Positions 1 to 7,864 of a stretch of DNA of 7,864 nucleotides are shown piece after piece. The stretch lies in IMG/VR virus record IMGVR_UViG_2541047722_000016; one strand, given 5' to 3'. The position numbers and the translations under genes are program-made. Source of the stretch: a virus (taxonomy: Duplodnaviria > Heunggongvirae > Uroviricota > Caudoviricetes). The notes beneath the pieces are model-generated. The model did not search any database. It was not told the DNA's origin and worked only from the letters and a program-made list of their open reading frames with translations. How positions within the stretch are numbered: the first letter of the stretch is position 1; every line of letters begins with the position of its first letter.

Positions 1-204
1 AGCGGTGGTGAGCCCTCCATCACCGCCCCCGGTATCCCGCTCATGCTGGCGAACCCAGACACGCAGAGTCTCCGGCGTACAGCCAATCTTTGGAGCAATG
101 GAACAAATTGTCGCCCATTGTGAGTCATATTCGCTCTGACTTTCCAGAACCATACGGACTGCCCGTTGACGGACTTCGGGGGAAAAACGAGTATTTTTAG
201 TCAT
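1..204 (-). CDS. IS3-family transposase OrfA, N-terminal part (partial, runs off window)
   Basis: ATG at 204-202 on the minus strand, preceded by GAAAGAGGTAAACAGG. My translation: [68 protein letters not shown], an HTH-type OrfA N-terminus. It is absent from the ORF track because it is under the length cutoff and truncated by the window edge. Confidence 0.75.
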
Positions 205-258
205 CCTGTTTACCTCTTTCTCAGGAAGTTTAGTCTCCAGGATTCCCGGGGCGGTTCA
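1..258 (-). mobile_element. Left end of an IS3-family insertion sequence (IS629/IS1203-like), continuing off the left edge of the window
   Basis: Minus-strand reading from 258 gives a terminal inverted repeat starting TGAACCGCCCCGGGAATCCTGGAGAC (IS3-family ends begin TG). About 50 nt inside it lies a GAGG Shine-Dalgarno and an ATG opening orfA. The IS629 assignment is from memory of the IS629 end and OrfA sequence, not a search. Confidence 0.75.
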
Positions 259-477
259 CAGATGCCATTCATGACCTTTGAAATTCGCTTTGTATGGCTT
301 TCTGGCGGCATTCAGGAGAAGGTTTTCCCACAGGGTGCGAAGATAAACATCTTTCGCCCATGACTGTTTCAGAATGCTCCGGTACAACGGAATGTAACCA
401 GTTTTCTGGTTCTCCATCCTGTTGCTCCTGCGCTCGTGTGCGGCGCTGAAATCGTAGATTTTTGCTGTATTGCTCAT
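256..477 (-). pseudogene. Lambda O-like replication initiator, N-terminal 73 codons only; truncated by the IS insertion
   Basis: ATG at 477. The N-terminus MSNTAKIYDF resembles lambda O (MTNTAKILNF, from memory). The reading frame runs straight into the IS terminus at 258, and its TGA stop (256-258) is the first three bases of the IS inverted repeat (TGAACC). Confidence 0.5.
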
Positions 478-479
478 AA

Positions 480-752
480 CTACCTGCCTTGACGAAAGAC
501 CTTAAGAACATCGTTAAACTGACTTACGGATATGTCTTCTTTGAGAAGCTTTTCCAGAAATGCGTTTGGAATGAACGTATATCCCTCCTCTTTTGGTAGA
601 GACGGGAGCAACGCCCTCGCCTCAGCCTTCAGAAGCTCAGTTCTGGCAACTTTCACAAAAGAGATTTGAGTTCTTTCATCAATGGAACGAAGGAAGCGCA
701 AACGCTTAGCTTCTTTGTGTGTATCAGGTGGATTAAAGCCTTTGTTTCGCAT
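480..752 (-). CDS. Hypothetical protein (90 aa) between cII and the O-like gene
   Basis: Internal ATG at 752 of track ORF 480..1025, with GAGG 7 nt upstream (minus-strand ACGAGGTAATTAT-ATG). The upstream part of the track ORF overlaps cII in another frame and is rejected. No family recognised. Confidence 0.45.
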   Translation of the reverse strand: MRNKGFNPPDTHKEAKRLRFLRSIDERTQISFVKVARTELLKAEARALLPSLPKEEGYTFIPNAFLEKLLKEDISVSQFNDVLKVFRQGR

Positions 753-763
753 ATAATTACCTC

Positions 764-828
764 GTTGGATGTTGTTAAAATTCCATTTGTATTTGATCAG
801 AACGCTCGGTTGCCGCCGGGCGTTTTTT
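764..828 (+). ncRNA. oop: oop-like antisense RNA overlapping the 3' end of cII, with its intrinsic terminator
   Basis: Plus-strand hairpin CGCTCGG-TTGCCG-CCGGGCG (803-822, one G-U pair) followed by TTTTTT (823-828), lying inside the cII 3' coding region as in lambda. A perfect TATAAT at 752-757 overlaps the start codon of the downstream minus-strand gene, as the lambda Po -10 overlaps the O start. The 5' end is inferred, not seen. Confidence 0.5.
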
Positions 829-1068
829 ATTGGTGAGAATCGAAGCAACTTGTCGTGCCAATCGAGCCATGTCGTCGTCGACAACACCCCATTCAAGAAC
901 AGCAAGCAGCATTGAGAACTTTGGAATCCAGTCCCTCTTCCACCTGCTGATCTGCGACTTATCAACGCCCACAGCTTCCGCTGTCTTCTCAGTTCCAAGC
1001 ATTGCGATTTTGTTAAGCAACGCACTCTCGATTCTTAGAGCCTCGTTGCGTTTGTTTGCACGAACCAT
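775..1068 (-). CDS. cII: CII transcriptional activator (lambda cII-type, 97 aa)
   Basis: Internal ATG at 1068 of track ORF 775..1155 gives MVRANKRNEALRIESALLNKIAMLGTEKTAEAVGVDKSQISRWKRDWIPKFSMLLAVLEWGVVDDDMARLARQVASILTNKKRPAATERSDQIQMEF, near-identical to lambda CII as I recall it. RBS AAGGAAAT lies upstream. Confidence 0.9.
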   Translation of the reverse strand: MVRANKRNEALRIESALLNKIAMLGTEKTAEAVGVDKSQISRWKRDWIPKFSMLLAVLEWGVVDDDMARLARQVASILTNKKRPAATERSDQIQMEF

Positions 1069-1085
1069 ATGTAAGTATTTCCTTA
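1046..1085 (+). promoter_or_regulatory. PRE-like promoter with CII recognition repeats TTGC-N6-TTGC, reading rightward toward c2
   Basis: TTGCGTTTGTTTGC at 1046-1059 on the plus strand, inside the first codons of cII on the other strand, followed by AAGTAT at 1073-1078. This is the lambda PRE arrangement. Confidence 0.6.
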
Positions 1086-1101
1086 ACAAATAAGAAGTTA
1101 T

Positions 1102-1119
1102 GCGCATCAACTTATGCGC
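1102..1119 (-). promoter_or_regulatory. Stem-loop between nutR and cII (tR1-position hairpin)
   Basis: Minus-strand GCGCAT-AAGTTG-ATGCGC, a perfect 6-bp stem. There is no clean U-tract, so if it terminates it would be rho-dependent, like lambda tR1. Confidence 0.3.
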
Positions 1120-1126
1120 GTTGTAT

Positions 1127-1170
1127 TCCCGCATTTCGGCGGGAATGAGGACCATGACTGTTAAAGAGCA
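1127..1170 (-). promoter_or_regulatory. nutR-like site: boxA plus boxB hairpin
   Basis: Minus-strand TGCTCTTTAACAG (boxA, plus coordinates 1158-1170), then 13 nt, then TCCCGC-CGAAAT-GCGGGA (boxB, 1127-1144). The same 18-nt boxB recurs downstream of PL. Confidence 0.6.
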
Positions 1171-1176
1171 ATTTGC

Positions 1177-1362
1177 TTATGCCGCTTTGCGGTAAGCGCT
1201 TTCTTGATACTTCAGGGCGCCAGCTGTAACGACTTCCAGTCGATAGGCGTCTTTCTCTGGGATGACTTCCTTCCACTGAGAGACTGCTGCGTCGCTAATG
1301 CCTAACGCTTTAGCTACAGCACGCTGGGTTCCGAAGTGGTCGATAACATCTTTCTTGTACAT
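1177..1362 (-). CDS. cro: Cro repressor (P22 Cro-type, 61 aa)
   Basis: Track ORF MYKKDVIDHFGTQRAVAKALGISDAAVSQWKEVIPEKDAYRLEVVTAGALKYQESAYRKAA with an HTH motif; GGAG lies upstream of the ATG. Divergent from c2 across an operator region. Confidence 0.9.
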   Translation of the reverse strand: MYKKDVIDHFGTQRAVAKALGISDAAVSQWKEVIPEKDAYRLEVVTAGALKYQESAYRKAA

Positions 1363-1376
1363 AGACTCGCTCCGAA

Positions 1377-1442
1377 ATTAAAGAACACTTAAATTATCCA
1401 CTAAAGGAATCTTAAGTCAAGTTTATTTAAGATGTCTTAACT
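1377..1442. promoter_or_regulatory. OR region: three 18-bp P22-type operators overlapping PR (leftward) and PRM (rightward)
   Basis: ATTAAAGAACACTTAAAT (1377-1394), ACTAAAGGAATCTTAAGT (1400-1417) and ATTTAAGATGTCTTAACT (1425-1442) all fit ANTNAAG-N4-CTTNANT. PR on the minus strand: -35 TTGACT (1415-1420), 16-nt spacer, -10 GATAAT (1393-1398). Confidence 0.65.
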
Positions 1443-2614: not shown

Positions 2615-2913
2615 ATGACAGTAGTCATTACATATCTGGCTGACGATAACGCCAGAAATCGCCGCAGAGCACGCAGACAGGCTCAACGTGAACAGGCGAT
2701 GCAAGACAGCGACTGGCGCGAAAAATTGCGCTAAAGCTCTCTGGTTGCGTCAGAGCGGATAAAGCAGCATCACTCGGAATCCTTCGCTGCAAGAAGGCAG
2801 ATGAAGTCGAGAGTAAACAGAATCGTATTTACTACCGCAAGCCACGCAGTGAAATGGGTGTGACTTGTGTTGGTCGCCAGAAAATGAAATTAGGCAGCAA
2901 ACCACTTATTTGA
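2615..2913 (+). pseudogene. N: N-like antitermination protein, split by a 1-nt frameshift
   Basis: ATG at 2615 with GGAGG 7 nt upstream. Frame A gives MTVVITYLADDNARNRRRARRQAQREQAMQDSDWREKLR and stops at 2732-2734; it carries an arginine-rich motif. The frame one nucleotide behind is open from 2692 and ends ...NRIYYRKPRSEMGVTCVGRQKMKLGSKPLI at the TGA 2911-2913, matching the lambda N C-terminus as I recall it. Both frames are open across the A5 run at 2721-2725. Confidence 0.6.
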
Positions 2914-2921
2914 GGTGATAT

Positions 2922-3392
2922 ATGACAAAATCATGGAGCGTACCTTTTCCTGAATCAGAAACTGAACATGATGGAATGCCTGTTTTCTGGAGATTCCAAG
3001 CGACAGTTGAAGAAGATGGAATCAAAATATTCGCACTTCAATATATAGCTTTTCATCAGACAGAGCATTATGCATGGTTGGTTCCTGCGCATTGGATTGT
3101 TAATTTTAAACCAGCACCAAATCAGTGGTTACAGGAATGGAAACAAAGGAGAAATAGATATGCAATTAAGAAAGTAGCAAAAAATGCAGAAAGATCTTTT
3201 GCATTCCCGACGAAGAAACTTGCCATTGAAAGTTTATTGCGCCGGAAGAAATACCATTTGATGAGAATCAAACAAGATTTGGCTGTTGTATCAACTCTTG
3301 TTGATGGGATGAAGAATATTGATACATCAACACCAGGTATTGAATATAACTTTGGACACAACCAAGAAACAGAAAACTGGGTGTTTTATTAG
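2922..3392 (+). CDS. Hypothetical protein, 156 aa, AT-rich gene in the N-to-cIII interval
   Basis: Track ORF with GAGGTGA 6 nt upstream of the ATG. It starts 8 nt after the N stop. Visibly more AT-rich than the flanks (about 40% GC in a hand-counted sample). Acidic N-terminal half, K/R-rich C-terminal half, no obvious transmembrane segment, no family recognised. Confidence 0.7.
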   Translation: MTKSWSVPFPESETEHDGMPVFWRFQATVEEDGIKIFALQYIAFHQTEHYAWLVPAHWIVNFKPAPNQWLQEWKQRRNRYAIKKVAKNAERSFAFPTKKLAIESLLRRKKYHLMRIKQDLAVVSTLVDGMKNIDTSTPGIEYNFGHNQETENWVFY

Positions 3393-3406
3393 TACGAATA
3401 AGCACT

Positions 3407-3434
3407 GTGTATTCATTCCAACGAGTGAATACAC
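3407..3434. repeat. Perfect 9-bp inverted repeat with a 10-bp spacer
   Basis: GTGTATTCA (3407-3415), 10 nt, TGAATACAC (3426-3434). No T-tract follows. Confidence 0.5.
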
Positions 3435-3496
3435 GGAGCAATGTCGCTCGTAACTAAACAGGAGCCGACTTGTTCTGATTATTGGAAATCTTCTTT

Positions 3497-3520
3497 GCCC
3501 TCCAGTGTGAGGGCTTTTTT
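3497..3520 (+). terminator. Intrinsic terminator downstream of the AT-rich gene
   Basis: GCCCTC-CAGTGT-GAGGGC hairpin (3497-3514) followed by TTTTTT (3515-3520). Confidence 0.7.
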
Positions 3521-3586
3521 ATATGCATACCAATAACGCTTCACTCGAGGCGTTTTCGTTATGCAATCAAACAGAAGGAGCATCCT

Positions 3587-3757
3587 ATGCAACAGTTCGC
3601 TATTGCAGGGGCGGCATCGGTTCGCCCTTTCAACCCGATTTTATCGGTACAGCATTCACGAAAAAACATTTTAACCGGAGCAGACTTTAAACAACCAAGA
3701 ATGAAAAGCTTGCTCGAAAAGCTTTGGGATATTTTGAAACAACAAGGCCGTCCATGA
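3587..3757 (+). CDS. cIII: CIII-like small protein (56 aa)
   Basis: Internal ATG of track ORF 3482..3757, with AGGAG 7 nt upstream. The N-terminus MQQFAIAG and the C-terminal SLLEKLWDILKQQGRP resemble lambda CIII as I recall it. Its position matches cIII on the lambda map. Confidence 0.45.
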   Translation: MQQFAIAGAASVRPFNPILSVQHSRKNILTGADFKQPRMKSLLEKLWDILKQQGRP

Positions 3758-7620: not shown

Positions 7621-7663
7621 TGCCTGATTTGCAGGTTCGATTCCCTATTCGGAGATAGCACTC

Positions 7664-7864
7664 ATGCAACACGAACTACAACCTGATTCACTGGTTGATT
7701 TGAAATTCATCATGGCCGATACTGGCTTCGGTAAAACCTTCATCTATGACCGGATTAAGTCCGGCGACCTGCCAAAAGCCAAAGTTATCCACGGGCGAGC
7801 AAGATGGTTATATCGTGACCATTGTGAATTCAAAAATAAGCTCTTAAGCCGCGCCAATGGGTAA
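7664..7864 (+). CDS. AlpA-family / excisionase-like DNA-binding protein (66 aa)
   Basis: ATG at 7664 with GGAG 9 nt upstream. The HTH-like core DLKFIMADTGFGKTFIYDRIKSGDLP is typical of AlpA/Xis-type regulators. The stop coincides with the last base of the window. Confidence 0.6.
   Translation: MQHELQPDSLVDLKFIMADTGFGKTFIYDRIKSGDLPKAKVIHGRARWLYRDHCEFKNKLLSRANG

Follow-up and report, generated by a model that had tools for sequence, protein, structure and literature searches.

An IS629 insertion divides replication-initiator gene O of a CUS-3-like P22-type prophage

The window (the whole stretch of DNA analyzed here, 7,864 nucleotides of the Caudoviricetes record IMGVR_UViG_2541047722_000016) begins inside an insertion sequence (IS) and passes at 258/259 into phage DNA, which continues from 259 rightward. 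It is the exact reverse complement of positions 2614-10477 of L003 (scaffold KE699353.1, GCA_000456885.1), and its left edge is the start of a 1195-N scaffold gap inside the IS copy. The following features meet at the boundary.

1..258, minus strand: IS629 (IS3 family), left end, on the orfA side; 100% identity with the initial 258 bp of full 1310-bp copies in L001 (NZ_CP070111.1) and L003.
1..204, minus strand: first 68 codons of IS629 orfA, with its ATG at 204..202; from translation, with a match to Pfam HTH_Tnp_1 (E = 3.9e-8).
234..258, minus strand: terminal inverted repeat IRL, 25 nt, TGAACCGCCCCGGGAATCCTGGAGA; 23 of the 25 positions match the other IS end.
256..258, minus strand: TGA stop codon of truncated O, formed by the opening triplet of the IS inverted repeat; from translation and sequence.
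259..261, minus strand: CTG, one copy of a 3-bp target duplication and also codon 73 (Leu) of O; the second copy lies on the far side of the IS (L003 11775-11777), and the intact gene has a single one.
259..477, minus strand: replication-initiator gene O, 5' fragment with the first 73 of its 315 codons and an alternative annotated start at 417; 100% identical to the N terminus of CUS-3 O.

On the minus strand the junction reads ...GGC ATC TG followed directly by TGAACCGCCCCGGGAATCCTGGAGAC..., the latter being the IS part from 258 leftward. The ATG at 477 opens 73 codons (477..259), which end at the TGA at 258..256. An earlier note on this DNA had described an O-like frame of this length running into an IS repeat at 258 and stopped by the IS's own TGA; translation and the boundary matches bear out the first point, and the second holds as well, since this TGA opens the inverted repeat. 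When window positions 1-1160 were compared by megablast with 5,426 complete Escherichia coli genomes, hundreds of genomes matched at 100% identity starting exactly at 259 and extending rightward, never leftward, and the exact junction of the window had no match among the 5,426. The same junction was found in an independent read-based assembly (Logan SRR800516). The in-frame stop supplied by the IS is real but carries no special meaning, because IS629 starts with TGA at both ends and one frame in three ends there.

The earlier note had pointed leftward for the second IS end, a 3- to 4-bp target duplication, and the remainder of the gene, and all three are present in the scaffold. Past the N gap in KE699353.1, the DNA continues as 102 bp of IS ending in the same inverted repeat, with the terminal 14-mer of IRL recurring at L003 11761-11774, and then as CTGCAACCCGGTCAACTGG..., the continuation of O. 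This part resumes at O nucleotide (nt) 217, a 3-bp overlap with the stub, so that CTG stands on both sides of the IS and the remaining 242 codons follow immediately; uninterrupted O reads GGCATCTGCAACCC, and the interrupted copy reads GGCATCTG-IS-CTGCAACCC. The element thus follows nt 219 of the 948 in O and points the same way as the gene. The severed 3' part (732 nt) has no mismatch to CUS-3 and runs on into the helicase gene. When the 5' stub is joined to the 3' part and one CTG is removed, the result is a 948-nt open reading frame (ORF) with no internal stops, identical to CUS-3 gene O.

The ends of the element, TGAACCGCCCCGGG..., are IS3-type 5'-TG/CA-3' termini of ∼25 bp, present at both ends, and the orfA ATG lies 51 bases past the TGA on the minus strand. 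What is sequenced of the O copy (258 + 102 bp) is 100% identical to complete 1310-bp copies, one at L003 18069-19378 and one in strain FDAARGOS_1301. The complete sister copy in L003 is 99.5% identical over 1310 bp to elements annotated by their depositors as "IS3 family IS629" (OrfA, OrfB) in LC567824.1 and LC567828.1, which gives a name to the IS3-family element that the earlier note had recognized. Its product is a 404-amino-acid protein with HTH_Tnp_1 and rve domains, and RefSeq labels such copies "IS3 family transposase, programmed frameshift." A simple search of the IS for an A6G/A7 slippery motif found none; the programmed -1 frameshift is taken from the RefSeq annotation. Of the orfA/orfB layout, the window shows orfA codons 1-68, and the remainder of the O copy falls in the scaffold gap. 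The element in O is IS629, the sole gap in its identification being this unsequenced interior. The terminal 13-mer did not name the IS in the literature; it led to IS6110 papers only, the end sequence being common within the IS3 family. Positions 731-2040 of AF017626.1, a 2.7-kb record of phage 21 "int: integrase," match this IS629 variant at 100% identity, so the phage 21 integrase gene in that record is IS interrupted too.

For IS629 in E. coli O157:H7, Rump et al. (2011; PMC3271280) reported target duplications of 3 to 4 bp and a preference for prophages, which contain 62% of the copies. Both duplications seen here, CTG at the O copy and AAAG at the sister copy in the terminase gene, are within that range. 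The element is the same as in the O157:H7 prophages (PMC3271280) and shares its duplication length; here, however, the host is a CUS-3-like P22-type prophage and the target is gene O.

Intact O is a 315-amino-acid protein, 100% identical to CUS-3 O ("phage replication protein"), and the full uninterrupted allele occurs in ∼272 complete E. coli genomes. Its gene belongs to the pR operon, where it follows cII and directly precedes a gene for a DnaB-type "replicative DNA helicase." The Pfam family PF04492 (Phage_rep_O) matches residues 20-132 of intact O with 56.9 bits (gathering cutoff, 28.7), and matches the 73-codon stub with 33.3 bits, over profile positions 1-48 of 95 only. RefSeq starts the protein at the ATG at 417, 20 codons later and 53 codons before the IS, whereas the CUS-3 depositors place the start at 477. 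The 73-codon reading appears to be the better of the two, because it agrees with the CUS-3 annotation and because lambda O aligns from residue 1 (MTNTAKILNF versus MSNTAKIYDF, with about 8 of the first 10 residues identical). No homologue of O with a solved structure was found.

Likeness to lambda O extends to the N-terminal position of the Phage_rep_O domain, the conserved first ten residues, and the location of the gene after cII, although identity is only ∼32% over 69 residues. Inside intact O, nt 428-555 hold six to eight direct repeats of 12 bp, of the CCGCACATGA type, followed by a stretch of ∼38% G+C. The lambda record annotates four ori iterons at the equivalent place within O, and in both phages the repeats are followed by AT-rich DNA; the period is 12 bp in CUS-3-type O and 18 bp in the lambda iterons. 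Both the repeat pattern and the likeness to lambda suggest that this iteron-like cluster is probably the origin of CUS-3-type phages. The partner gene of O is also different, encoding a DnaB-type helicase as in P22 and not a P-type loader as in lambda. The cluster lies at L012 8964-9106 (CUS-3 O nt 428-570) and at L003 11986-12112, and it also encodes a histidine/alanine-rich linker.

A further ∼440 complete E. coli genomes, many of them O157:H7, share only O nt 572-948 (L012 9108-9484), at 95 to 97% identity, and a sharp mosaic boundary lies in O directly after the repeat cluster. Lambdoid initiators are usually built of two modules, an origin-specific front and a helicase-facing back, and the sharing of nt 572-948 alone would fit such a build. 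A mosaic boundary at the insertion point itself was ruled out, as 275 of the 287 complete-genome matches run straight through it. Seven unrelated short contigs from isolates and metagenomes (L005-L011) stop no more than 2 nt from the insertion point (window 257-262); they were rejected as further IS junctions, since they read ...CTGCA, as the intact gene does. Their clustering probably arises from the way they were retrieved, by an exact-product lookup for the 53-amino-acid form, because only contigs cut at that codon yield that exact product.

Upstream of the stub, the minus strand carries cro, cII, a small conserved ORF, and then O.

480..752, minus strand: conserved 90-codon ORF (orf90) between cII and O; WP_001244621.1 in RefSeq genomes, with no Pfam match.
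775..1068, minus strand: cII, intact; lambda CII family protein WP_000251072.1, Pfam Phage_CII.
1362..1177, minus strand: cro; from the minus-strand order cro, cII, 90-codon ORF, O stub.
1393..1420, minus strand: pR-like promoter TTGACT-16-GATAAT upstream of cro, from a consensus scan; it would drive cro, cII, orf90, and the O stub.

CUS-3 (CP000711.1) is a P22-like phage (Lederbergvirus) of E. coli K1 strain RS218, and CUS-3-like P22-type prophages are typical of extraintestinal E. coli. The prophage in the window resembles it closely: O is identical once the IS is removed, the order cI, cro, cII, O, helicase is the same, and the recombination/ea region is 99.9% identical. Unlike this prophage, CUS-3 has no IS, and it has an intact N gene and full sets of nin-Q-lysis and terminase genes. 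The two also differ between N and erf, where ∼0.8 kb (window 2924-3754) replaces the ∼2.2 kb that carries ral, cIII, and kil in CUS-3. The ∼0.8-kb segment of the window includes a 156-codon ORF (2922-3392).

Over 6.9 kb, a single indel separates the window from a near-identical prophage remnant in FDAARGOS_1301 (NZ_CP070111.1). It, too, carries IS629 in O in the same orientation (L001 4949-6371), but 113 bp further in, after nt 332; on the far side of the IS lies a truncated injection-protein gene, which points to a deletion of ∼19 kb, and N is intact. No deletion would turn one of these arrangements into the other, and the two insertions are thus independent events. Among the 5,426 complete genomes, FDAARGOS_1301 has the only other IS629 end adjoining this cII-O segment, and there was no sign across them of a general IS629 hot spot in the segment.

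We consider it very likely that the locus records a simple IS629 insertion into O of a CUS-3-like prophage, from which we infer, strongly, that the prophage has lost self-replication. One copy of IS629 transposed into O of a P22-type prophage of this kind, with CTG duplicated in the process. With the IS-initial TGA in frame, translation from the pR operon ends at residue 73, partway through the N-terminal Phage_rep_O domain, and the IS parts the promoter-proximal stub from the last 242 codons, the iteron-like cluster (O nt 428-555), and the downstream DnaB-type helicase gene. Lambda O binds the iterons through its N-terminal domain and uses its C-terminal part to recruit the helicase or its loader. 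The 73-residue stub would do neither, neither binding the origin nor recruiting the helicase, so that the prophage, judged from what is known of lambda O, would be unable to fire its own origin and would not replicate itself after induction. The severed part of O is free of secondary mutation, which suggests that the insertion is recent, and precise excision would be expected to restore O.

Replication could nevertheless have been kept despite a real insertion, with O supplied in trans or with the 3' fragment and the helicase gene expressed by read-out from the IS, but we regard this as unlikely. Nothing is damaged in the 3' part of O, the iteron cluster, or the helicase gene, even if the IS cuts them off from the pR operon; in-frame internal starts exist, with GTG occurring first at codon 80 and ATG first at codon 105; and another resident prophage of the same origin specificity could in principle provide the protein. 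However, any internal restart would lose at least residues 1-79 and with them over half of the Phage_rep_O domain. The frameshift in N should also keep early transcription weak, and the 20 kb examined contain no second O gene of this type.

That O in this prophage lineage is a preferred or selected target of IS629, and that a scarless insertion serves as a reversible off switch for replication instead of marking decay, we think quite improbable. The idea draws on the two independent insertions, 113 bp apart and oriented alike in near-identical prophages, and on the intact target duplication and the unmutated remainder of O; two insertions in one lineage are too few to argue for target preference or selection.

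It is highly improbable that the junction is instead the scar of an IS-mediated deletion or of IS-IS recombination, with the rest of O and the genes past it gone. Exactly this is found in the near-identical FDAARGOS_1301 prophage, with IS629 at O nt 332 and a fragment of the injection-protein gene beyond, but in KE699353.1 the far side resumes at O nt 217 and reads without mismatch into the helicase gene. A scaffolding artifact, in which the contigs flanking the N gap were misjoined through a repeated IS, carries a similarly small probability. IS629 is multicopy (the scaffold has a second copy 6 kb off), and the 1195-N gap is longer than a 1310-bp element predicts, giving the IS a nominal length of 1555 bp with the N included. 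On the other hand, scaffold gap lengths are estimates, and a misjoin would not leave a perfect 3-bp duplication with gene O resuming exactly where it broke off and in its original orientation. An extra insertion within the gap of the O copy is possible, the sequenced part being 258 + 102 bp. Finally, there is next to no chance that the 73 codons make up a complete small gene of their own that happens to adjoin the IS, for although an ATG and a stop bound this ORF and gene calling yields a 73-amino-acid product with a Phage_rep_O match, the same DNA is part of a 315-codon gene in CUS-3 and the ∼272 complete genomes, the stub covers only the first 48 of 95 profile positions, and the missing 242 codons lie directly beyond the IS with the CTG duplication; the full-length O of CUS-3 and the rejoined 948-nt ORF exclude it.

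The simple insertion into O is one of several lesions in this prophage, another being in the N gene.

2615..2734, plus strand: N-like antiterminator gene, of which a 1-bp deletion at 2706/2707 leaves 39 codons; compared with N of FDAARGOS_1301 and of CUS-3, both of 99 codons.

A single A has been lost, which leaves the arginine-rich N terminus and removes the remaining 60 codons; the N frameshift of the earlier note is therefore genuine. The second IS629 (L003 18069-19378, with its 4-bp AAAG duplication) interrupts the large terminase gene of the same prophage, and an IS5-type transposase gene (L003 15393-16587) stands where ∼5.4 kb of CUS-3 is missing (ninX to Q, the lysis genes, and beyond). 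The cI, cro, and cII genes encode proteins identical to those annotated in many genomes. With O split, N frameshifted, IS629 in terminase, and the IS5-associated loss of nin-Q-lysis, the prophage is decaying and defective at several independent steps, with its immunity region intact. The earlier note had suggested a domesticated prophage that keeps immunity and accessory genes; the retention of cI, cro, and cII stands and the damage is multiple, but "domesticated" implies selection and claims too much.

The main gain is for annotation: a single pseudogene accounts for both the "replication protein" of 73 (or 53) codons and the ORF of 243 codons on the far side of the IS. In this CUS-3-like prophage, replication, antitermination, control of late genes, lysis, and packaging should all be scored as defective. 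The locus is a further case of prophage erosion by IS629, from outside the O157:H7 lineage to which most descriptions refer. Such damage is a known and well-documented kind of event, and the splitting of O is ordinary and raises no new question.

Two further observations concern the remainder of the window. On the plus strand at 799-836, opposite cII and overlapping the cII 3' end, there is a strong terminator-like hairpin with a T run, at the place where an oop-type antisense RNA is expected; an Rfam scan of the whole window, this hairpin included, gave no family above threshold. At the right end, the match to CUS-3 stops at the annotated 16-bp attR core (window 7629-7644, ending at 7644). 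Beyond it, an ORF at 7664-7864 on the plus strand matches the TorI excisionase/Tor inhibition protein over its full length (PDB 1Z4H; E = 6.6e-43), which places the excisionase outside the phage as delimited in the CUS-3 record; past this ORF, the scaffold continues with LysR-type and GntP-type host genes.
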